Assembly (NCBI GenBank): GCA_036012905.1
Contig: DASCQF010000126.1
Location: forward strand, 13,165-77,164
Direction: 5' to 3'
DNA: 64,000 bases
DNA from: Vicinamibacterales bacterium
GTDB lineage: Bacteria; Acidobacteriota; Vicinamibacteria; Vicinamibacterales; UBA8438
Under the pieces are notes generated by a model. That model did no database searches. It saw only the letters and a list, made by a program, of their open reading frames with translations, and had not been told where the DNA came from. Shown in pieces: positions 7,292 to 63,791 of the stretch. Position 1 is the first letter of the stretch, and every line of letters begins with the position of its first letter. A program made the position numbers and the translations under genes.

Positions 7292-7355
7292 ATCCTTGTT
7301 AACCGCTGATGGTACAAGCTGTTAGCGTCTCATTCAAGGATCGATGCACCCTCCG

Positions 7356-7398
7356 CCCTTCATCTGACTGCTGAATCCTGACTTCTGACTTCTCGAGC
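7356..7398 (+). repeat. Heptamer-periodic intergenic array (CTGACTG CTGAATC CTGACTT CTGACTT CTCGAGC)
   Basis: Read directly from the sequence, in the spacer between the uppS start and the truA stop. Confidence 0.75.
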
Positions 7399-7405
7399 AA
7401 CCGGC

Positions 7406-10696: not shown

Positions 10697-10710
10697 AACG
10701 AGTGCGCCCC

Positions 10711-10747
10711 AGGAGTCAGAAGGCAGAAGGCAGGAGGAAGAGGGTGG
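10711..10747 (-). repeat. Heptamer-periodic intergenic array (CTGMCTY units, read on the minus strand)
   Basis: The plus strand reads AGGAGTCAGAAGGCAGAAGGCAGGAGGAAGAGGGTGG. It lies between the tolC-family stop and the GT2 start. Confidence 0.75.
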
Positions 10748-11509: not shown

Positions 11510-11545
11510 CCCGCGCGGGTCAATCATCGTTCTGAAGCGGAAGCC

Positions 11546-11603
11546 GGCGAAGCCATCCAGCTTCCTTCTGCCTTCTGACTTCTGACTTCTGCCTTCTACG
11601 CTC
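11546..11603 (+). repeat. Hairpin-head plus heptamer array element (GGCGAAGCC..GCTTC then CTGCCTT CTGACTT CTGACTT CTGCCTT CTACGCT)
   Basis: Read directly from the sequence, between the GT2 stop and the GT4 start. Confidence 0.8.
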
Positions 11604-11616
11604 CAAAGCTCCCGCC

Positions 11617-16609: not shown

Positions 16610-16677
16610 CCTCTTTGCGGCCTCTCTGGGCCGACATTAAAGAGACGGGTTGATCATAGTGCACGGTCCATCTCTTT
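16610..16677 (-). promoter_or_regulatory. PyrR-binding RNA leader (attenuator-like) upstream of pyrR
   Basis: The minus-strand RNA reads ...AAAGAGAUGG..CCCGUCUCUUUAAUGUCGGCCCAGAGAGGCCGCAAAGAGGUC. The core CCCAGAGAGGCCGCAAAGAGG is close to the PyrR binding-loop consensus (UCCAGAGAGGCU.GCAAGG). UCUCUUU can pair with either flanking AAAGAGR segment. Confidence 0.7.
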
Positions 16678-18476: not shown

Positions 18477-19171
18477 ATCAGCTCCTCGTGGCACTCGATG
18501 TCGACACCAGTGAGCGGGCGATCGAGCTGGCCGACCTGCTGCGCGGCACCGCGGGTGGTTTCAAGATCGGAAGCCGGCTCTTTACGAGCGAAGGGCCGTC
18601 GATCGTCTCGGCGCTCGCAGACCGCGGCGACCGGGTGTTCCTGGACCTCAAGTATCACGACATTCCGACAGTCGTGGCAGAGGCGGTGCGGGCGGCGGCC
18701 CGTCTCGGGACCTGGATGCTCACTGTCCATTCCGCCGGTGGACCAACCATGCTGGAGGCCGCGGCCGACGCGGCGCGTCAGGCCAGCCGGCCGCCGCTCG
18801 TGGTCGGAGTAACGGTGTTGACCAGTCTCGGCGACGCGGAGCTCGCGCGCATCGGCGTGAGCCGCGCGCTGGCCGACCAGGTGGAAGCACTGGCCGACCT
18901 GGCAACCGGCGCCGGTCTCGATGGTATCGTGGCCTCACCTCGCGAGGTCGGGCGGCTGCGCGCCCGCCTGGGCTCGGGGCCGATACTCGTGACGCCCGGC
19001 ATCCGTAACGGCGCTGGTACCGGCCAGAGCGGCAGCGACGACCAGGTGCGGACGCTCAGCGCGGCTGAAGCCCTCTCGGCCGGCTCCAGCTATCTCGTGG
19101 TCGGACGCCCCATCATCGCGTCCCCGGACCCTCTGACGGCGGCCCGGGCGATCGCCGAGCAGCTCAAATGA
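18473..19171 (+). CDS. pyrF: orotidine 5'-phosphate decarboxylase
   Basis: [22 protein letters not shown], and YLVVGRPI motifs. The GTG at 18473 overlaps the pyrD stop (GTGA). The longer ORF from 18239 is out-of-context Arg/His junk overlapping pyrD. Confidence 0.88.
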
Positions 19172-19176
19172 AGGCT

Positions 19177-19234
19177 GGCGTAGGCCTCCGGCTTCCTTCT
19201 GCCTCCTGCCTCCTGACTTCTGCCTTCTAACTCC
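19177..19234 (+). repeat. Hairpin-head plus heptamer array element (GGCGTAGGCCTCCGGCTTCC then CTGCCTC CTGCCTC CTGACTT CTGCCTT CTAACTC)
   Basis: Read directly from the sequence, between the pyrF stop and the glutaredoxin-like gene start. Confidence 0.8.
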
Positions 19235-19245
19235 TTGAGCGCCAC

Positions 19246-28832: not shown

Positions 28833-28849
28833 CGTGCTCCCAACGATCT

Positions 28850-28906
28850 GGCGAAGCCCACCTGCCACCTTCTGACTTCTGCCTTCTGACTCCTGACTTC
28901 TCGAGC
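28850..28906 (+). repeat. Head plus heptamer array element (GGCGAAGCC.. then CTGACTT CTGCCTT CTGACTC CTGACTT CTCGAGC)
   Basis: Read directly from the sequence, in the queE-queC intercistronic spacer. Confidence 0.8.
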
Positions 28907-28914
28907 ATCCTCCG

Positions 28915-30337: not shown

Positions 30338-30370
30338 TACTGGATTCTTGCGAGCTGCGAACCAGATGTT

Positions 30371-30430
30371 GGCGAAGCCCTCCAGCTTCTCCTGACTCCT
30401 GCCTCCTGACTTCTGACTCCTATCGAGCGC
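30371..30430 (+). repeat. Hairpin-head plus heptamer array element (GGCGAAGCCCTCCAGCTTCTC then CTGACTC CTGCCTC CTGACTT CTGACTC CTATCGAGCGC)
   Basis: Read directly from the sequence, between the 2-hydroxyacid dehydrogenase stop and the nth start. Confidence 0.8.
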
Positions 30431-30433
30431 TCT

Positions 30434-31405
30434 TCAGAGGGCCACCGGCGTCACCGCCGGCCGCCCACTCACGACCTCCACCACGTTGCGCACGGCGAGC
30501 TCGGCCATCGCCGTACGGGTTTCACGGGTGGCGCTCCCCAGGTGCGGCGTCAGACAGACGTTCTCCCGGCCAACCAGCTGAGGGTGCACACCCGGCTCCC
30601 CCTCGTACACATCGAGACCGGCGCCGGCAATCAGACGCGCATCAAGGGCCCAGGCAAGGGCGCCGTCGTCCACCACTCCCCCACGCGACGTGTTGATCAA
30701 GAACGCCGATCGCTTCATGCGCGCCAACGTCCGCCGGTTGATCAGGTGTCGGGTGTCCTGGGTCAACGGCACGTGCAACGACACGACGTCAGATGTCAGC
30801 AGAAGTTCGTCGAGCGATACCACCGCATGGTCGGTCGCGGCATTCTCGGCGCCAGCACCGGTCCGCGCAGCGAAGACCGCACGCATCCCGAACGCCGGCG
30901 CAACGGCGGCCACGGCGCGACCGATCCGTCCGGCGCCGACGACCCCGAGCTGCTTGCCCCGTAGCTCGGCGCCCAGGAGGAAATCGAAGGCCCAACCCTT
31001 CCAGGCGCCGTTCCGGACCACCCGCTCGCCCTCACCGATGCGGCGCGTCACCGCCAGAATCAACGCCCACGTGAATTCCGCCGTTGCGCCCGTCAGGATG
31101 TCGGGCGTGTTCGTCACCACGATCCCCCGCGACGCGGCGGCCGCGACATCGATGTTGTCGAATCCGACCGCGACGGTCGCGACCACCTTCAGCTGGTCTC
31201 CGGCGGCGATCGCCGACTCTTCGATCCGATCGTTGAACATGCAGATGAGGCCCTGCTTCCCACCCACACGCGCGCATAGCGCGTCGTGCGACAGCGCGTC
31301 AGAGTGGTCGTGCAGGTCGATGTCGCAGACGACTTCGAGCTGGGCGAGCACGGCAGACGGCATCCGCCGTGTGACGAGCACGGACGGCTTAGTGGCCCCG
31401 GTCAT
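30434..31405 (-). CDS. D-isomer-specific 2-hydroxyacid dehydrogenase (glyoxylate/hydroxypyruvate reductase-like)
   Basis: NAD-binding GVVGAGRIGRAVA, catalytic-region NTSRGGVVD, and HLGSAT. The start is ambiguous. ATG 31405 lies inside the inverted-repeat element, and an in-frame GTG at 31381 is the alternative. Confidence 0.85.
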   Translation of the reverse strand: MTGATKPSVLVTRRMPSAVLAQLEVVCDIDLHDHSDALSHDALCARVGGKQGLICMFNDRIEESAIAAGDQLKVVATVAVGFDNIDVAAAASRGIVVTNTPDILTGATAEFTWALILAVTRRIGEGERVVRNGAWKGWAFDFLLGAELRGKQLGVVGAGRIGRAVAAVAPAFGMRAVFAARTGAGAENAATDHAVVSLDELLLTSDVVSLHVPLTQDTRHLINRRTLARMKRSAFLINTSRGGVVDDGALAWALDARLIAGAGLDVYEGEPGVHPQLVGRENVCLTPHLGSATRETRTAMAELAVRNVVEVVSGRPAVTPVAL

Positions 31406-31583
31406 AAATACGGTCGCATTCGGCCGCCGATGCATCCCACCAGGCGCGGCGCTGGGCTTCGGCTCAGCGGGGTCGACTGCTGCCGGTCTGCTCCCTCCTC
31501 GCGCCTACCGCGAGCTGTGTGCGGCATCCGTCGAGTCGGCCCTCGATGCGTGACCGTATTTTTGACCGGGACCACTCGGACGG
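31388..31583. mobile_element. ~195-bp element with 25-bp terminal inverted repeats, copy A (MITE-like or structured RNA)
   Basis: Left arm AGTGGCCCCGGTCATAAATACGGTC (31391-31415) matches the reverse complement of the right arm (31552-31576) at 23/25 positions. About 80-85% identical by eye to 62305-62500. It is flanked by the direct repeat CGGACGG (31381-31387 and 31577-31583). Confidence 0.7.
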
Positions 31584-31595
31584 AGCCGTGGGGGG

Positions 31596-31868
31596 TCAGT
31601 CGACCAACCCGTTGGGGTCGACGATGCCGACGAGCGCGGCATCCACCGGGGCCGCGCGACGACCGAGGGCGGCGCCGGCGGCCCGCCCCTCGAGGACGAG
31701 CAGCACCAGTTCGCCGACGCCGGCGCCAACGGCGTCGACCGCCAGCTGGGTCGCACCCATCGGTCGGCCGTCACGGTCCACCGGCTGCGTCAACAGCAGC
31801 TTCGCCCCCTCGAGAGTACGGTCCTTCTTTGTCGCCACGACGGAGCCGATGACCCTGGCGATCCGCAT
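31596..31868 (-). CDS. BMC vertex protein, EutN/CcmL family (BMC-P), paralog 3 in the operon
   Basis: MRIARVIGSVVATKKDRTLEGAKLLLTQPV...AVDAVGAGVGELVLLV...PVDAALVGIVD is collinear with EutN/CcmL. Confidence 0.9.
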   Translation of the reverse strand: MRIARVIGSVVATKKDRTLEGAKLLLTQPVDRDGRPMGATQLAVDAVGAGVGELVLLVLEGRAAGAALGRRAAPVDAALVGIVDPNGLVD

Positions 31869-31875
31869 CTCCCGG

Positions 31876-32196
31876 CTACCCCCCGGTGGAACGACGACGT
31901 GAGGCGCGGCGTGACGGCGTGGTCGCGACAGCCTCGGTGCTCCAGTGGTCGCAGATGCCGGTGACGCTCGCGTCGGTCGGAACCACTCGAGGGTGAAACG
32001 GGAAGGCTGCCTCTCGGCCGCGAACGAAGAACACGTCTTCGCCAGCGCCGGCTCCGACTGAATCGACCGCCACCAGCGGCGCTCCCACCTTCTCGCGCGC
32101 CGCGGACAGCGGCTGCAGCACGAGTAGCGTGCATCCGGCCAGACCGGGGTCCTTCGCGGTCGAAACGACGTTGCCGATCACCCGTGCGAGCTGCAT
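31876..32196 (-). CDS. BMC vertex protein, EutN/CcmL family (BMC-P), paralog 2, with a basic C-terminal tail
   Basis: MQLARVIGNVVSTAKDPGLAGCTLLVLQPL...AVDSVGAGAGEDVFFV. It carries an extra 23-aa tail HWSTEAVATTPSRRASRRRSTGG. Confidence 0.85.
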   Translation of the reverse strand: MQLARVIGNVVSTAKDPGLAGCTLLVLQPLSAAREKVGAPLVAVDSVGAGAGEDVFFVRGREAAFPFHPRVVPTDASVTGICDHWSTEAVATTPSRRASRRRSTGG

Positions 32197-32225
32197 CGAT
32201 GCGTGCTACCTGGAGGACTCAGCGG

Positions 32226-32501
32226 TCAGGCCGCGTCATCGGTATCGACCGCGTCGACGATACCGACAATCGCCGCGTCGATCGGACGGTCGGTGAGCCC
32301 AGCGGCCATTCGCGCCGAGCTGCCGCTGACCACCAGCACCGTTTCGGCGGCACCTGCGTCAACCGTGTCGACCGCCACCAGCGAGGCCCCATGCGCTTCA
32401 CCATCGGGTGACACCGGCTGCACGAGCAACAGCTTGCTCCCGACCAGCCGGTCGTCCTTGCGGGTCGCGACGACGGTGCCTACCACCTTTGCGAGGATCA
32501 T
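32226..32501 (-). CDS. BMC vertex protein, EutN/CcmL family (BMC-P), paralog 1
   Basis: MILAKVVGTVVATRKDDRLVGSKLLLVQPV...AVDTVDAGAAETVLVVSGSSAR...PIDAAIVGIVD. An upstream Met at 32525 is an alternative start. Confidence 0.9.
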   Translation of the reverse strand: MILAKVVGTVVATRKDDRLVGSKLLLVQPVSPDGEAHGASLVAVDTVDAGAAETVLVVSGSSARMAAGLTDRPIDAAIVGIVDAVDTDDAA

Positions 32502-32572
32502 GACGTCTAGATAGGAACGTGTCACACGAAGACGGCGCCCTCGCGTGGTGCGACGGCGGCCTGTCGGGCACG

Positions 32573-32860
32573 CTACTTACCCGTGCTCTTGCCGATCGGC
32601 AGGGCGTCTTCGACGTTGGCGTGGGGTCGCGGGATTACGTGCACCGCCACGAGTTCGCCGACACGACGCGCGGCAGCGGCGCCGGCGTCGGTGGCCGCCT
32701 TCACGGCCGCCACGTCTCCCCGCACGATCGTGGTCACGAGGCCCGCGCCGATCTTTTCCCAGCCGACCAGAGTCACCTTGGCGGCCTTGACCATGGCGTC
32801 CGATGCTTCGATCATCGCGACGAGTCCCTTGGTCTCCACCATTCCCAGCGCCTCGCCCAT
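32573..32860 (-). CDS. BMC shell hexamer protein (BMC-H, PduA/EutM/CcmK family)
   Basis: [80 protein letters not shown] is near-collinear with PduA. A GGAGG sits 6 nt upstream of the ATG. Confidence 0.95.
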
Positions 32861-32873
32861 TCCATGCCTCCAA

Positions 32874-33794
32874 CTACTGCAACTGCTTCACGGCATCTGC
32901 GATCAGTGCCGTCAGCTCGCGGTATGTTAATCGAATTTCCTCATCCGAACCTAGCAACCCGGAACCAAGGTCCAATGGCTGACGACCGGAACCGCCATGG
33001 GATTCATCACTGGCGTCCCGCGTTCCGGCCCGACTGGAATCGACCGCCTGCGTGTCGACCACCTGCTCGCCAGGCTGCGCCGGCGCCTCGAGCGTTTGGC
33101 AACTGAGGTCGGGGCCGTTTTCCGGGTCCGTCGGGCAGATCGGCGCCGGTGCCGCGATGCCGTAGCGATCCCGAAGGTCCTGCAGCCGGTTCACCTCTTC
33201 TCGCGATAGAAGCCGCTCTCGGCCCAACTGTCTGGCCACGAGGCTGATCCGTGCGAAGTGCTCCACCGTTTCCATCTTGTAGTAGGCCGCAAACAGCTCA
33301 TCCGCAACCGTCAGGGCGCCATGATTGGCGAGCAACAACCCGTCGTGCGCGCGGATGTACTGCCGCACGGCATCGGCCAGCTCGCTGGTGGAGGGGGTGC
33401 CGTAATCGGCGATCGGAATGCTGCCCAGCGTGGTGACCACCTCCGCCAGCACCGCGCGATCGAGCGGAATCCCAGCGACGGCAAACCCGGTCGCGGTCGG
33501 CGGGTGCGCGTGCACGACGGCCTTGATCTCCGGCCGGTTCTCGTAGACCGCCAGGTGCATGAGGATCTCGGACGACGGCTCGCGCTCACCGGTGAGCTTG
33601 CCCCCGGCGAGGTCGGTCGTGACCATCATGTCCGGCGTCATGAAGCCCTTCGACACGCCGGTCGGCGTCGTCAGTAGCCGGTCGCCTTCGAGGCGGACAC
33701 TGATGTTCCCGTCGTTCGACGCGACAAAGCCGCGCTCGTGCAGCCGACGCCCGACTTCGACGATGTCGGCCCTGAGCCGCTCTTCAGTCTGCAT
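32874..33794 (-). CDS. class II aldolase (fuculose/rhamnulose-phosphate aldolase family) with a ~90-aa C-terminal extension ending in an amphipathic helix
   Basis: Catalytic motifs are [19 protein letters not shown] and LLANHGALT (Zn His triad plus Glu, as in FucA). Residues ~217-306 are extra. They form a Pro/Gly/Ser/Asp linker, then [22 protein letters not shown]. Confidence 0.9.
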
Positions 33795-35480: not shown

Positions 35481-35514
35481 GATCCCTCCATCACGGTCAG
35501 ACATTAGAAGTGGT

Positions 35515-35571
35515 GGCGAAGCCCACAGGCTTTCTCCTGTCTCCTGCCTCCTGTCTCCCGACTTCTAGAGC
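35515..35571 (+). repeat. Hairpin-head plus heptamer array element (GGCGAAGCCCACAGGCTTTCTC then CTGTCTC CTGCCTC CTGTCTC CCGACTT CTAGAGC)
   Basis: Read directly from the sequence, between the glmM stop and the pdxJ start. Confidence 0.8.
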
Positions 35572-35578
35572 ATTCGTC

Positions 35579-39559: not shown

Positions 39560-39626
39560 CTAGAGACCACCCCAATGGAGGCAGGAGTCAGGAGGCAGGA
39601 GACGGGAGAAGCCGGGGGGCTTCGCC
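39560..39626 (-). repeat. Hairpin-head plus heptamer array element (minus strand: GGCGAAGCCCCCCGGCTTCTC then CCGTCTC CTGCCTC CTGACTC CTGCCTC)
   Basis: Read directly from the sequence, between the ftsH stop and the folP start. Confidence 0.8.
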
Positions 39627-39654
39627 GTCCTCTGGTCCGGCCTGGATGGGACCA

Positions 39655-43173: not shown

Positions 43174-43250
43174 TGGTGCCGGTGCAGGGACTTGAACCCC
43201 GGACAACGCGGATATGAGCCGCGTGCTCTAACCAACTGAGCTACACCGGC
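43174..43250 (-). tRNA. tRNA with CAU anticodon (elongator Met, or Ile2 lysidine substrate), CCA encoded
   Basis: Hand-folded cloverleaf. Acceptor GCCGGTG/CACCGGC, D stem GCTC/GAGC, anticodon stem CGCGG/CCGCG with loop CUCAUAU, T arm CGGGG-TTCAAGT-CCCTG, discriminator A, then CCA. G1-C72 excludes the initiator. Confidence 0.9.
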
Positions 43251-43387
43251 GAAGCTAGATGTATTGTATCAACTCCGAGCTTCGGGCCTCTGGGCCTTCG
43301 GAGGACCGCGGACGGGCTCCGCCGTCCAGGCAGGCTGGCTGTGACCGAGGAGCAACGCAGCCCAGGCGGGCGCCTCGCCAGGAAAAC

Positions 43388-44434
43388 CTAGAGAATAAGC
43401 ATCGCGTCGCCATAGCTGTAAAAGCGGTAGTCTCGGTGGACCGCTTCGGCGTAGGCCGCCAGCAGAGGCTCCCGTCCGGCGAAGGCGCAGGCGAGCATCA
43501 GCAACGACGACCGTGGCAGATGAAAGTTGGTGAACAGGGCCCCAATGACCCTGAATGTCACGCCGGGAAACAGATACAGGTCGGTGACCCCGACGCCGGC
43601 AGACAGACGACCGCCCCCCTTCCGAACCGCCGTTTCGAGCGTGCGGCACGTAGTGGTGCCAACCGCCACGATCCGTCGTCCCGAATCGAGCGCTCGGTTG
43701 ACCGCGGCGGCGGTGGCCGCCGGCACATCGTATGCCTCCGGCTCGACACGGTGCTCCTCGACCCGCTCCACGCGGATCGGCTGAAACGTGCCATACCCAA
43801 CGTGCAGAGTCACCCGTTCGACCTCGATCCCCCGCTTCCGGAGACGCCTCAGCAGGGCGTGGGTCAGATGGAGTCCGGCTGTCGGCGCCGCCACGGAGCC
43901 GCGGACCGTCGCATACACGGTCTGGTACCGCTCGCCGTCGATCGTGTCGTCCGGTCGCTTGATGTAGGGTGGCAGTGGCACGTGTCCGAGCCTGTCGATT
44001 GCCGATTCGACCGAGGTCCCGTCCTCTACCCAGAGCCGGACAGTGCGCCGCCCGTGAAACCGGCGCTCGAGCACCTCGCCGCGCAGCCGGAGGCCGTCGG
44101 TTTCGAACACGACAGCGGCGCCAACCCGCAGCTTCTGCCCAGGATGCATCAGGGCGTCCCACCGCTCGTCGTCGATTCGAGCAAGCAGCAGACACTCGAC
44201 CGCCCCGCCACTCGGCACACGATGGCCGAGCAGCCGCGCCGGAAACACCCGTGTGTCATTCACGACGACTAGATCGCTCGGCGACAGCAATTCGGGCAGA
44301 TCGGTGACCGTCCGGTGCGACAGCACGCCACTGCCGCGGTCGAGGACCAGCAACCGCGCCGCCTCCCGGTCGGACGTCGGCGATTGCGCAATCCGATCCG
44401 CCGGCAGCTCGAAATCGAAGTCGGAGACGAGCAT
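43388..44434 (-). CDS. queA: S-adenosylmethionine:tRNA ribosyltransferase-isomerase
   Basis: MLVSDFDFELPADRIAQSP N-terminus, VPLPPYI, and AAPTAGLH motifs. The upstream part of the 396-aa ORF covers repeat DNA and is rejected. Confidence 0.92.
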   Translation of the reverse strand: MLVSDFDFELPADRIAQSPTSDREAARLLVLDRGSGVLSHRTVTDLPELLSPSDLVVVNDTRVFPARLLGHRVPSGGAVECLLLARIDDERWDALMHPGQKLRVGAAVVFETDGLRLRGEVLERRFHGRRTVRLWVEDGTSVESAIDRLGHVPLPPYIKRPDDTIDGERYQTVYATVRGSVAAPTAGLHLTHALLRRLRKRGIEVERVTLHVGYGTFQPIRVERVEEHRVEPEAYDVPAATAAAVNRALDSGRRIVAVGTTTCRTLETAVRKGGGRLSAGVGVTDLYLFPGVTFRVIGALFTNFHLPRSSLLMLACAFAGREPLLAAYAEAVHRDYRFYSYGDAMLIL

Positions 44435-51290: not shown

Positions 51291-51839
51291 TCACTCTTCC
51301 GGTGCGTCGAAATTCTCCCACATGTACTCGGGCTGATAAGCGTGGAGATACAGGAAAACCTCGTGCACGAGGTTCACGACCCGGTTGACGCCATACTCGT
51401 GGTGATTCCGTGTCGCCACCAGTTCGAGCGACATGGCGCCCCGGGACAGGACGCACCGCACCCGGGCGCGACGGCGGTCGACCCGCCGGTGCGCCGGCAG
51501 CTTCGGTGAGGCGCGACCGGCGACGAACGCCTGCAGGTCGCGATGCAGTGGCGAGCGCGCCCGCACATTCGGCAGCAGATTCCGGAACACGAAGGCCCCG
51601 GTCCCGGGCGTGTAGCCCAGGGCCAGCGGCTTGGTCCCGAGCCATGAGAATCGGAACCGGTGTCGACTGGCGGTCGACGCCTGCTCGCTGAATCCACGAA
51701 ATACGCCGCGGTCGGCGTAGCCCTGGAGCCGTTCCCGAACCACGGCCAACGACTGGGTCGCCGTCAGCCGAGGTCGGGACGCCGGCCTTGACTTGCTGCT
51801 TTGTCCTGCCTTCTGCCTTCTGACTTCTGACTTTTTCAA
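51291..51839 (-). CDS. hypothetical protein (start uncertain)
   Basis: Long ORF with ordinary composition in its C-terminal ~150 aa. The first ~20 codons (MKKSEVRRQKAGQ...) are a translation of a heptamer array. The real start is therefore probably a downstream GTG/TTG near 51,74x-51,76x. No family recognised. Confidence 0.5.
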   Translation of the reverse strand: MKKSEVRRQKAGQSSKSRPASRPRLTATQSLAVVRERLQGYADRGVFRGFSEQASTASRHRFRFSWLGTKPLALGYTPGTGAFVFRNLLPNVRARSPLHRDLQAFVAGRASPKLPAHRRVDRRRARVRCVLSRGAMSLELVATRNHHEYGVNRVVNLVHEVFLYLHAYQPEYMWENFDAPEE

Positions 51840-51845
51840 GCGCTC
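51782..51845 (+). repeat. Heptamer array element (CTGCCTT CTGCCTT CTGACTT CTGACTT ..AAGCGCTC)
   Basis: Read directly from the sequence, just downstream of the ThDP-enzyme stop. Confidence 0.8.
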
Positions 51846-54690: not shown

Positions 54691-54730
54691 CTCTCCGTTT
54701 CTCTGCCTTCTGACTTCTGACTTCTAGAGC
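54691..54730 (+). repeat. Heptamer array element (CTGCCTT CTGACTT CTGACTT CTAGAGC)
   Basis: Read directly from the sequence, between the GGT stop and the FGE-family start. Confidence 0.8.
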
Positions 54731-54738
54731 TAAGGACC

Positions 54739-58357: not shown

Positions 58358-58369
58358 TGTCAGGACACC

Positions 58370-58410
58370 GGCGAAGCCGACCGGCTTCTCCTGCCTCCTG
58401 CCTCCTAAGA
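58370..58410 (+). repeat. Hairpin-head plus heptamer array element (GGCGAAGCCGACCGGCTTCTC then CTGCCTC CTGCCTC CTAAGAA)
   Basis: Read directly from the sequence, between the RidA stop and the 542-aa ORF start. Confidence 0.8.
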
Positions 58411-61373: not shown

Positions 61374-61565
61374 AGGTTTGGCTGGGGTCTGTGAGCGCCG
61401 CTCATTTGGGGCCTCTACTTGCGACACTGGGACCAGCAGACTTACAGCCCCTGTCGAACAGCGTGGGTTCAGGGTCCGTGTCCCGCCACCCCGCGTCGGA
61501 GCTCGCCGTGAGCCGATTTGTCCCTCTGGGGCGTGTCGGCACGAACTAGCCCCTCAGTTCGGAGA

Positions 61566-62270
61566 ATGAAGGCACGAACAGCGTCGACAAGGCTTCTCGA
61601 CAGGCTCAAGAAACTGTGGATCCGTGTGCTAACTGGAGACTGTTTGAGGAAAACCAGGTTGCATACCTATTCGGGCAATTTGATCGATCTTCGCGGCATG
61701 CGGTACCTGCCGTCGTCGATGTGGTCAGTTTTTCTTTTGAAAGCTTTTGGATATCGTCTTCGCGTTCCCTGGCTTGGGTACCGCGCAGTGACGCATCTCG
61801 GCCATCTCGTGCGCCCGAATTGGAAGGTGCTCGAGTTCGGCTCTGGCATGTCTTCACTGTTCTTTGCGCGAGCGTGTTCTAACCTCGTTTCGGTGGAGTC
61901 TGACCAGAGCTGGCACGATCGCATGCAAGAAATGTTTTCAGAGGAGGGGATGAACAACATCGACTACAGGCTTTGCGATCCTGACTCCTACAATTCACAT
62001 CCTGACCTCCCGATCAACCACTTCGACTTGATCGTGATTGACGGAATGGCAAGAGACGTGTCGGCGCAAGTTGCGATTCAATTAGTGCGTCCGGGGGGGT
62101 ATATTTTTTACGACAATAGCGATGTTCCGTGGGAAGAGTACAGGAAGGCTCGCAACCTCTTGACCGCAGCAGCCGAGTCAAACGGAGTGACAATCTTCAA
62201 TGACTTCACTCCATTTCAAATCCAGGTAAACGAAAGCATGCTGGTCAAAATCAGTAAGCGGCAGCACTGA
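61566..62270 (+). CDS. putative class I SAM-dependent methyltransferase-like protein on a low-GC islet
   Basis: VLEFGSGMSSLFFA (motif I-like) and DLIVIDG. Local G+C is visibly far below the flanks, with runs such as TTTTTCTTTTGAAAGCTTTTGGATATCG. The start is set at MKARTAS. Confidence 0.55.
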   Translation: MKARTASTRLLDRLKKLWIRVLTGDCLRKTRLHTYSGNLIDLRGMRYLPSSMWSVFLLKAFGYRLRVPWLGYRAVTHLGHLVRPNWKVLEFGSGMSSLFFARACSNLVSVESDQSWHDRMQEMFSEEGMNNIDYRLCDPDSYNSHPDLPINHFDLIVIDGMARDVSAQVAIQLVRPGGYIFYDNSDVPWEEYRKARNLLTAAAESNGVTIFNDFTPFQIQVNESMLVKISKRQH

Positions 62271-62304: not shown

Positions 62305-62500
62305 CTTAGTGGCCCCGGTCATGAATACGGTCGCATTCGGCCGCCGATGCATCCCACCCAGGCCGGCGTTGGGCTCTTGCTCAGCGGGGTCGAATACTGC
62401 CGGTATGCTCCCTCCTCGCGCCTACAGCGAGCCGAGCGCGGTATCCGCCGACTGGGCCCTCGTTGCGTGACCGTACTTATGACCGGGACCACTGAGAACG
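62305..62500. mobile_element. ~195-bp element with 25-bp terminal inverted repeats, copy B
   Basis: Left arm AGTGGCCCCGGTCATGAATACGGTC (62308-62332) matches the reverse complement of the right arm (62469-62493) at 22/25 positions. About 80-85% identical by eye to 31388-31583. It begins 8-15 nt downstream of the glcE stop. Confidence 0.7.
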
Positions 62501-62507
62501 GTCGTTC

Positions 62508-63791
62508 TCAATATCCGCCTGGTCCACGACCACAATTCAGCGTACCGGTCGGGTCAAAGCGACGCTTGACCTCCTGCATGGTCCGCAGACCGTCGCCAAC
62601 CGGACCCCACACGTCGACCAGCGCCTTCAGCTCGGGGTCGGTCCGCTGGATCACGGCACTACCCCGGCCGACCGGGAGCCGGTTGCGCAGCGCGGTGACC
62701 AACGCCGCCTGTTCAGGCACCGGGCCACTGAACCCAAGATACAGCACACCGAGACCGGCGCGGCCGGTCACCCGGTAGTCGAGCCGGCGCGTGCTCGTAG
62801 CGTCGTCTAGCCAGGCGAGGGTCGACGTCAGCTCGGCCGGCAGAACCACCAGCTTCACAATCGTGCCTTCCTGGTCGAACAGACGGGCATCGTGCGCGCG
62901 CCAGGCGGCGGTCTCTTCGTCACCCGTCAGGATCGTCGGTGTGCCACCTAGGCCCTTGGCCAGCGTGGCCGCCTGCTCCGCCTGCTCGAGCACAACCGCC
63001 TCGACCGACTCGAACCGGACGAGCATCGTCGTCGGCGGCAGCGCTAACTCCAGCGCGGTTGGCGTGGCGGCGTGGGCCAGGAGATCGTCGACGAACGGGC
63101 CGCACAGCGCGGCGTCTGAAAACTCGACCGCCACGGACCGCGAGGCCTCAGCCAGCGGCGCCAGCTTGAAGGTGGCGGTCAGGATGACGCCGAGACACCC
63201 GAACGAGCCGGTCATCAGCCGCGCCAGGTCATAGCCGGCTACGTTCTTCACGACGATACCGCCGGTCTTTGCCAACAGACCGTCGGCCCGCGCCAGGGTC
63301 ATGCCGATTATCAGGTCACGCGGCGCGCCGTGACGTTGGCGACGCGGCCCGCTGTCGTTGGTGGCGACAATCCCGCCAATGGTGGCTCGGTCGCCCCATG
63401 GCGGATCCAGCGGCAACCATTGACGGTGCCGGCTCAACACGGCATTCGTCTCGGCGAGCGTCGCGCCAGCCTGCACCGTGGCGGTCAGATCGCCGTGTCG
63501 ATGCACGTCCACGGCGTTCATTGCCGCGGTCGACACCACGAGGTCCACGGACTCGGGTGGTGGCCCCCAGCTCAACTTCGTACCGCCGCCCTGCACCAGT
63601 ACGGTCCGCCCGGTTTCGGTCGCCCAGGCGAGCATCGTCGACACCTCAGGAGCGTTCTGCGGTGTCGCGACGATGCCCGGTACGACACCGTCTATTGCGT
63701 CAGCCATCGACCCCGGTCGGGCAACCGCCGCACCGACTCGCGCGTCCACCTCGGCCACGAGGTCGTCGGGTGTGGATGACTGGCTCGGCAT
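62508..63791 (-). CDS. glcE: glycolate oxidase FAD-binding subunit (GlcE-like FAD-binding oxidoreductase)
   Basis: The FAD_binding_4-type N-terminal half has VLVQGGGTKLSWG. Its position directly after a GlcD C-terminus fits glcE. Confidence 0.8.
   Translation of the reverse strand: MPSQSSTPDDLVAEVDARVGAAVARPGSMADAIDGVVPGIVATPQNAPEVSTMLAWATETGRTVLVQGGGTKLSWGPPPESVDLVVSTAAMNAVDVHRHGDLTATVQAGATLAETNAVLSRHRQWLPLDPPWGDRATIGGIVATNDSGPRRQRHGAPRDLIIGMTLARADGLLAKTGGIVVKNVAGYDLARLMTGSFGCLGVILTATFKLAPLAEASRSVAVEFSDAALCGPFVDDLLAHAATPTALELALPPTTMLVRFESVEAVVLEQAEQAATLAKGLGGTPTILTGDEETAAWRAHDARLFDQEGTIVKLVVLPAELTSTLAWLDDATSTRRLDYRVTGRAGLGVLYLGFSGPVPEQAALVTALRNRLPVGRGSAVIQRTDPELKALVDVWGPVGDGLRTMQEVKRRFDPTGTLNCGRGPGGY

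Follow-up and report, generated by a model that had tools for sequence, protein, structure and literature searches.

The 64,000-nucleotide stretch of Vicinamibacterales DNA analysed here (contig DASCQF010000126.1, positions 13,165 to 77,164; hereafter the window) carries two intact copies, A and B, of a short repeat with inverted ends. [quoted passage not shown] The first-pass annotation of this DNA had offered two explanations for the repeats: a MITE that supplies or masks start codons, and a conserved cis-regulatory RNA tied to glycolate and glyoxylate metabolism. It is the former that is borne out, by dispersal in many copies, by TIRs, by TA and TNA duplications, by orthologous sites found both empty and filled, and by the 5' end of the dehydrogenase gene that copy A has split; the link to glycolate and glyoxylate genes is coincidental.

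The insertion of copy A can be read almost letter by letter. The interrupted operon encodes bacterial microcompartment (BMC) proteins and runs on the minus strand in the order class II aldolase, BMC-H, three EutN/CcmL genes, element, D-2-hydroxyacid dehydrogenase, so that copy A is transcribed antisense to the orientation of its family. Homologues of the dehydrogenase (64–81% identity), which are named glyoxylate reductase or D-glycerate dehydrogenase, begin M-x-x-x-(K/R)-P-x-V-L-V-T-R-R, as in MPQPKPGVLVTRR and MDETRPQVLVTRR; the window protein begins MTGATKPSVLVTRR. In an uninterrupted relative, L136, 20 nt lie between the EutN stop and the dehydrogenase ATG; in the window the distance is 190 nt, and the interval is the element. 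Ahead of the element the minus strand of the window reads TGA CCCCCC ACG GCT CCG TCC GAG/TGG... (slashes mark junctions), and the filled orthologue L001 reads TGA CCCTCC ATG GCT CCG TCC AAG/TGG TCC CGG TCA TAA. The old start is thus retained in L001, where it now opens a nine-codon open reading frame (ORF) that ends at the TAA inside the terminal repeat, whereas in the window the native ATG has decayed to ACG and the TAA of the terminal repeat to AAA. Downstream, both genomes read ATG ACC GGG GCC ACT AAG/CCG TCC GT..., in which ATG...AC is terminal repeat and T-AA is duplicated target. When the element and one copy of the 3-bp target-site duplication (TSD) are deleted in silico, the result is ATG GCT CCG TC(T/C) AAG CCG TCC GTG..., that is MAPSKPSVLVTRR, in frame and of the length seen in homologues, which provides independent confirmation of a 3-bp duplication at a C/TAA/G site (codons TCT-AAG). 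Copy A is inserted four codons into the dehydrogenase gene, and the native start has been lost.

The dehydrogenase appears to be translated from the donated ATG at 31405, and its first five codons (MTGAT) appear to come from the terminal repeat, with MTGAT-KPSVLV replacing MAPS-KPSVLV; the N-terminal peptide expected from such a start would be (M)TGATKPSVLVTR. As the next valine codon in L001 is GTA and not GTG, the terminal-repeat ATG (31405-31403) is the only in-frame start before the conserved first strand, and an in-frame ATG farther upstream at 31435, also inside the element, may be an alternative. Public gene calls independently start the dehydrogenase at 31405 (P0001, 100% identical). 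Between the window and L001 the gene shows dS 0.20 and dN 0.03 (dN/dS 0.16), indicating that it has been under purifying selection since the two genomes split, and the insertion of copy A is older than that split. What we propose is that an ATG facing outward in the TIR, in frame by chance, would have become the dehydrogenase start once the native ATG had been cut off.

In anatomy the two copies largely match their first description, with several corrections. They are real copies of one another, and their identity is higher than the 80–85% originally estimated: 31388-31576 and 62305-62493 align without gaps at 88–89%. Their ends are, as described, 25-nt imperfect inverted repeats (form AGTGGYCCCGGTCAnnAnTACGGTC) that match at 23/25 positions in copy A and 22/25 in copy B. 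The TIR 16-mer GGTCATAAATACGGTC, with up to three mismatches allowed, occurs four times in the window, precisely at the four ends, where shuffled sequence leads one to expect 0.16 matches. The boundaries of copies A and B, whose terminal repeats are of GTGGCCCCGGTCATAAATACGG-type in inverted orientation, were set by reading these ends against the wider family. Six codons (MTGATK) that copy B was noted to share with the dehydrogenase are no more than an outward reading of the terminal repeat. Both strands of both intact copies fold more stably than shuffled sequence (z-scores -4.2 to -5.4), and the predicted fold is dominated by a terminal helix of ~30 bp. In the minus-strand RNA of copy A (minimum free energy -101.8 kcal/mol, z-score -5.2) the ATG 31405-31403 is paired, as the first-pass annotation had it, in a helix longer than the ~16 bp given there; the internal hairpin CUCGCG-N5-CGCGAG to which it drew attention is present in both window copies but is not conserved across the family. 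We also observed a family-wide asymmetry at position 6 of the terminal repeat, with C in the left arm and T in the reverse complement of the right arm (GGCCCC vs GGTCCC; in the window, 31396 vs 31571 and 62313 vs 62488), so that one strand has a C·A mismatch where the other has a G·U pair; the asymmetry is seen again in a subfamily with other arm sequence (CAGCCCG vs CAGTCCG).

Features of the MITE copies, their target sites and the interrupted gene in the window
Feature	Position	Strand	Basis
MITE copy A body, 184 nt	31392..31575	+ (family orientation)	nhmmer E=1.8e-60
Copy A left flank TTA, within CTTAG	31389..31391	.	TSD left copy; family-wide TNA rule
Copy A right flank TCG, decayed TSD (TTG in orthologue L001)	31576..31578	.	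sequence
Copy A left TIR GTGGCCCCGGTCATAAATACGGTC; minus strand holds outward-facing ATG 31405-31403	31392..31415	+	
Copy A right TIR	31552..31575	-	
MITE copy B body, 184 nt; between convergent methyltransferase-like ORF and glcE-like gene	62309..62492	+	nhmmer E=2.9e-64
Copy B left flank TTA	62306..62308	.	sequence
Copy B right flank TGA; middle base unlike left flank	62493..62495	.	sequence
Decayed third copy, other subfamily, CTAG-bounded	~43252-43391	-	family profile; nhmmer E=5.5e-7 for 43331-43386
Unoccupied TA target site	16657..16658	.	syntenic metagenome contig L095, flanks ~85% identical, filled there
2-Hydroxyacid dehydrogenase gene (glyoxylate reductase / D-glycerate dehydrogenase-like)	30434..31405	-	P0001 100% identical; dN/dS
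Decayed native dehydrogenase start, ACG here, ATG in L001; 6 nt after EutN stop	31587..31589	-	
EutN/CcmL-type BMC vertex gene, upstream	31596..31868	-	

The repeats belong to a large and dispersed family. An exact-match scan with the TIR pattern, over one genome per species, found 15 loci in two metagenome-assembled genomes (MAGs) of Acidobacteria, and when metagenome contigs were scanned for a core pattern, at least 120 loci came from samples that included deep ocean, soil, sediment and groundwater. An nhmmer profile built from 12 copies detected 188 copies, at most six per locus, in related DNA, both genomic and metagenomic, totalling 0.9 Mb; the metagenome loci were ascertained through the core pattern, and the profile likewise detects copies mainly by their core. 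Scaled up to the 6–7 Mb of relatives' genomes, the density in the window (64 kb with two intact copies and a relic) would give each carrier genome a number of copies of the order of 10^2. Among about 100 further copies, most are 160–190 nt long with arms of 20–33 nt that are nearly perfect within one copy, sizes that lie within the 50–800 bp and the at least 10–15 bp of TIR by which MITEs are recognised (defining features in PMC11602168 and PMC3733652; definitions also in PMC10969869). The element has no coding capacity: 1–2-nt indels and optional hairpins among copies disrupt every reading frame, and the ORFs that cross the window copies read through GC-rich sequence and show non-conservative changes. 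Two kinds of coding candidate, a micro-ORF (ATG-CTC-CCT...) and the long ORFs of the plus strand, were considered and rejected, since indels shift the frame. L001 is a Vicinamibacterales MAG contig 89–93% identical to the window over 7.7 kb, a similarity that places the organism in Vicinamibacterales, Acidobacteria. Literature searches found no described Acidobacteria MITE of this kind, and the family is apparently a hitherto undescribed superfamily that is very abundant in Vicinamibacterales-type soil and marine Acidobacteria.

Some members of the family show features of their own. The decayed third copy in the window sits between a gene whose TAG stop is the TAG of the left CTAG and a tRNA gene (43177-43250); it was considered as the orthologue of a copy in L128 and rejected, as the two occupy different sites. 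In L058 (3680-4034; duplicate L042, 3480-3801) two oppositely oriented members, separated by 23 nt, stand back to back as a composite inverted pair. The "empty" relative L136 also carries the family, since it has a short piece of the core (1506-1552) between its aldolase and BMC-H genes.

The target sites provide a second line of evidence. In the de-duplicated set 21 copies have CTAG at both ends, as expected if TA were duplicated within a CTAG target; in many further copies TA has other neighbouring bases. Where copies are flanked on both ends by xTNAG (n=27), the same N is found on both sides in 16/27, compared with 25% by chance (p=1.6e-4). If the inverted repeat simply extended into the flanks, the two middle bases should be complementary, and they are so in only three. 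A transposase acting in trans would, on this model, move the element into T-N-A sites, preferably C/TNA/G, duplicating TNA, and in sister subfamilies with other terminal repeats TA would be duplicated, often within CTAG. Empty sites occur on both sides of the comparison. L095 carries a 180-nt family member, with flanks TA and CA, at a site where the window reads uninterrupted ...TCAT/AGTGC... (16657/16658), and a copy in L116 is missing from the window at ~48707-48789 in the orthologous comparison; conversely, the orthologous site of copy A is empty in L136 and filled in the window and L001.

The same targets account for where copies are found. At 40/72 of the gene 3' ends that face an element, the gene end is within 3 nt of it, and copies lie in short intergenic spacers, often abutting stops, as would be expected if, in a 66% G+C genome, TA and TNA targets in a C...G frame coincide with the stop codons TAG, TAA and TGA; the two copies beside glycolate/glyoxylate-type genes would be explained by this concentration of target sites at stop codons and gene boundaries. 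Two direct repeats were considered as TSDs and rejected. The 7-bp CGGACGG around copy A, recorded in the first-pass annotation as a flanking direct repeat, does exist, but it is a pre-existing coding repeat of the interrupted gene, CCGTCC...CCGTCC (Pro-Ser...Pro-Ser), and a 6–8-bp repeat at the L004 copy lies in a tract of an unrelated heptamer repeat family.

The genes beside the elements are not of one kind. Domain matches support the original guesses for the window, with 2-Hacid_dh next to copy A and FAD_binding_4 (GlcE-like) and CCG/Fer4 (GlcF-like) in the neighbourhood of copy B. Copy B lies downstream of both of its neighbours, a plus-strand, lower-GC methyltransferase-like ORF and the minus-strand GlcE-like FAD-binding gene, and its end is, as first reported, close to the glcE-like stop codon (62508-62510), at a distance of 11 nt. 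Genes flanking ten other copies encode an ECF sigma factor, an NtrC-type regulator, an ABC ATPase, a beta-lactamase-fold protein, a thioesterase, and BON and Rap1a proteins, with none related to glycolate. With respect to the adjacent gene, elements at 3' ends are oriented 30 sense to 30 antisense; at 5' ends the ratio is 12:25 (p=0.047, uncorrected), a weak bias, and between co-directional gene pairs it is 24:40. No matches to promoter- or terminator-like consensus sequences were found in the element, and candidate sigma-54 and sigma-70 boxes were unconvincing on hand inspection.

If the two window copies were all one had, a riboswitch-like leader or attenuator for glycolate and glyoxylate genes, with a ligand or protein controlling access to the start codon through the helix, would be an appealing explanation: both adjoin genes of that type, the helix buries an ATG, the fold is more stable than that of shuffled sequence, and the EutN-dehydrogenase spacer of another lineage also holds a partial member of the family. 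In the context of the family, however, we regard it as highly improbable. Some 188 copies stand beside unrelated genes and in both orientations, copy B is downstream of two convergent genes, and uninterrupted orthologous operons work with a 20-nt spacer. The first-pass annotation had itself said that many copies in random contexts with target-site duplications would remove the regulatory interpretation, and this is what we found. Neither the whole window nor 12 further loci gave an Rfam match at the gathering score, and the element itself gave only chance-level hits (E>1) when matches were admitted up to E<=10. When 79 distinct copies are aligned, the cells of the arms are paired in 96% of cases, and between subfamilies both sides have changed at 14/14 scored pairs. 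One-sided G-U intermediates are few (13 vs 44 non-pairs), which is the signature of matched DNA repeats and not of an RNA stem; beyond the arms, covariation is confined to one short hairpin, and other candidate stems are invariant. That arm sequence varies while pairing is kept, and that copies are numerous in short intergenic spacers, might instead bring to mind REP/REPIN-type repeats, whose spread would depend on a RAYT (Y1/HUH) transposase and its recognition of hairpin structure rather than sequence, all the more so as RAYT-like transposases have been reported in Acidobacteria (PMC3733652). Yet REPs are palindromes of 20–40 nt that have GTAG or CGTC as their head and do not duplicate the target (PMC3733652), whereas the elements here are 160–190 nt long with arms of 24–30 bp, have TA/TNA duplications and a clean TA empty site, and in the case of copy A require exactly a 3-bp duplication for the N-terminus of the dehydrogenase to be reconstructed, and there is very little to recommend this origin for them.

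Several observations nevertheless weigh against the MITE interpretation or parts of it. Neither window copy has a perfect duplication (TTA/TCG at copy A, TTA/TGA at copy B). No autonomous insertion sequence (IS) or transposase with matching ends was found in the window, 139 loci, viral contigs or plasmids, and mobilisation in trans is therefore something that we infer; through matching TIRs it is an accepted mechanism for MITEs (PMC3733652, PMC11602168). In L003 a site with the TIR alone turned out to be a solo repeat, with a Lon-N-domain gene on one side and a thioredoxin-reductase-like gene on the other. Where TIR 20-mers occur away from known copies they are isolated relics, and copies without recognisable arms lie in element-sized spacers between ordinary genes. 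Both the use of the TIR ATG, which like the native start has no Shine-Dalgarno sequence ahead of it, and the effect of the helix on dehydrogenase expression are argued from sequence logic. Finally, outside the ascertained columns mean pairwise identity is 0.60–0.73 in the core and 0.38–0.50 in the arms, the reverse of the usual MITE pattern, and a central 4–5-bp hairpin (CATAC-loop-GTATG) covaries at three pairs across subfamilies, leaving room for an additional function of the core.

These last points are the starting point for another possibility, which we consider unlikely, though less so than either a regulatory RNA or a REP origin: that the family is mobile, but that its ~110-nt core is a selected structured module re-assorted among pairs of terminal repeats, including those of TA and TNA type. 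Transposition could then require the core, in the form of RNA or single-stranded DNA; or its RNA could serve the host as a signal for processing, stability or termination. Arm and core identity are only loosely correlated (r=0.26). In 14 pairs of copies, some of which combine TA-type with TNA-type ends, cores at least 85% identical are joined to arms at most 50% identical, and in 56 pairs arms at least 85% identical flank cores at most 60% identical, in part through the presence or absence of optional hairpins, which are inserted at fixed positions in the core. Between copy A and its L001 orthologue the left 54 nt are identical (54/54), while the other 140 nt differ at 27 sites and the right halves are of different subtypes. 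Helix mismatches favour G-U on the minus strand (46 vs 24), and there is the weak antisense bias upstream of genes (25:12). There are counterarguments. Conservation of the core is partly built in by ascertainment, the metagenome set and detection by profile both being biased to it. The half-and-half pattern of copy A and L001 points to gene conversion between dispersed copies, which could homogenise cores without any function. Most of the core lacks covariation, orientation is unbiased at 3' ends, and the element holds no detected promoter- or terminator-like signal. The balance of G-U and A-C mismatches was considered as a guide to which strand would yield a putative RNA, and rejected, as the strand asymmetries are small and not independent of phylogeny. 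Core and arms do have partly uncoupled histories, a matter that bears on the way in which MITE families diversify. If the core were functional, the family would be a "cargo-carrying" MITE and not a deletion derivative of an IS.

If the MITE interpretation of copy A is right, it is tempting to ask what the insertion does to the gene. In the operon mRNA the two arms would pair into a helix of ~30 bp that buries the donated ATG. The absence of a Shine-Dalgarno sequence at the native start suggests that the native dehydrogenase was probably translated by coupling to EutN across the 20-nt spacer; with the element present, initiation would require that the helix be opened. In L001 the remnant nine-codon ORF extends 16 nt into the 5' arm, and ribosomes translating it would free the 3' arm. 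This ORF is absent from the window. Alternatively, the helix might be opened by RNase III, for which helices of ~30 bp are typical substrates, as at the Correia elements. In Neisseria these are cut at their repeats by RNase III, affecting neighbouring genes (PMC10969869, PMC2649163). Judging from sequence, expression of the dehydrogenase is probably lowered and uncoupled from EutN, but sufficient and not abolished.

Other features of the two neighbourhoods may be recorded here. The BMC locus (30434-33794, minus strand) is compact, syntenic in L001, L136, L138 and L139, and conserved across Vicinamibacterales-type genomes. L138 and L139 (2958-3054), which represent another lineage (P0009), also carry a partial MITE between EutN and the dehydrogenase. 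It is oriented as copy A is but belongs to another subfamily, with an arm of CTAGCAGCCCGTGG-type, and leads gene callers to add 22 spurious N-terminal residues (MHRRSNAAG...) to the dehydrogenase; this is an independent insertion at the same junction. Near copy B, the methyltransferase-like ORF (61518-62270; Methyltransf_24, a weak match) has lower G+C than its surroundings, lies between the convergent GlcF-like and GlcE-like genes and is possibly a separate horizontal insertion, and directly after copy B (62495-62510) there is a perfect small hairpin, GAGAAC-GGTC-GTTCTC, whose 3' arm includes the GlcE-like stop codon. The window also contains a second dispersed repeat, unrelated to the MITE, that consists of tracts of three to four heptamers [CT][CT]TG[AC]CT (e.g. 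CTTCTGACTTCTGCCTTCTGACT) preceded by a short GGCGAAGCC...GGCTTC hairpin. Its tracts are at 7341-7400, 10700-10747, 11532-11604, 19163-19242, 28836-28908, 30358-30440, 35514-35573, 39564-39639, 51770-51842, 54692-54732 and 58369-58406, lie 15–26 nt from adjacent gene ends, mostly just past stop codons, and are purine-rich on the sense strand, (AGTCAGR)n; one such tract flanks the L004 MITE copy and mimics a TSD.

What is gained from this analysis is, on the one hand, the removal of a false lead, as there is no glycolate-linked riboswitch here, and on the other a clean natural case of a transposon end apparently taken over as a start codon within a microcompartment operon, for which related genomes preserve three states: the empty, ancestral one, one with the old ATG retained, and one with the old ATG decayed. 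Vicinamibacterales-type Acidobacteria are a major but poorly studied group in soil and sea, and there is a practical side to recognising such a family in them, since its copies fragment assemblies, create spurious ORFs and N-terminal extensions (P0009, and a 333-aa call in the window) and can mislead annotation.

Where the family stands among known mobile elements can be judged in part from its duplications. Duplication of TA within CTAG is typical of IS630/Tc1-mariner elements, with RUP of S. pneumoniae as a MITE example, and 2–3-bp TA/TNA duplications are typical of the IS427 and IS1031 groups of the IS5 family and of Tourist/PIF-Harbinger. By TSD type alone, the parents would presumably be of the IS5 family (IS427/IS1031 groups) for TA/TNA and of IS630/Tc1-mariner for TA in CTAG. 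The Acidobacteria family has both of the TSD types of IS630- and IS5-type MITEs; its terminal bases are GTG.../GGG.../GCA..., and it differs from these in that a cognate IS was not found in the window, 139 loci, viral contigs or plasmids. It shares with REPs and REPINs that it consists of abundant intergenic hairpin-forming repeats, often near gene ends, which in the case of REPs can affect mRNA stability (PMC3733652), but its elements are much longer, have TIRs around a core and target-site duplications, and lack the GTAG/CGTC head.

The closest parallel in organisation is with the Correia elements (CREE/NEMIS) of Neisseria, which are likewise small and non-coding (100–155 bp), with TIRs of ~26 bp around a conserved core, which make TA-type duplications and stand beside genes in their hundreds, and which are co-transcribed with their neighbours so that the arms form a long double-stranded RNA helix. 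In Neisseria this helix is bound or cut by RNase III, with changes in the expression of adjacent genes (PMC2649163, PMC10969869); for the Acidobacteria elements such processing is only inferred, and no IHF site or outward promoter was detected in them. Sequence and host phylum are unrelated, the subfamily of copies A and B duplicates TNA instead of TA, and in the Acidobacteria family it is the arms that vary between subfamilies and the core that is shared. The Acidobacteria element is thus an analogue of Correia/CREE and not a member. In Rickettsia palindromic elements and intragenic ERIC sequences, an in-frame part of the element is translated within a functional host protein (PMC10969869), and the five N-terminal codons that the dehydrogenase appears to have received from the terminal repeat of copy A are reminiscent of this. 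However, copy A is not an in-frame insert in a mature coding sequence: its bulk stays untranslated in the spacer, and rather than extending a protein from within, it separates the old start from the gene and apparently supplies a new one.

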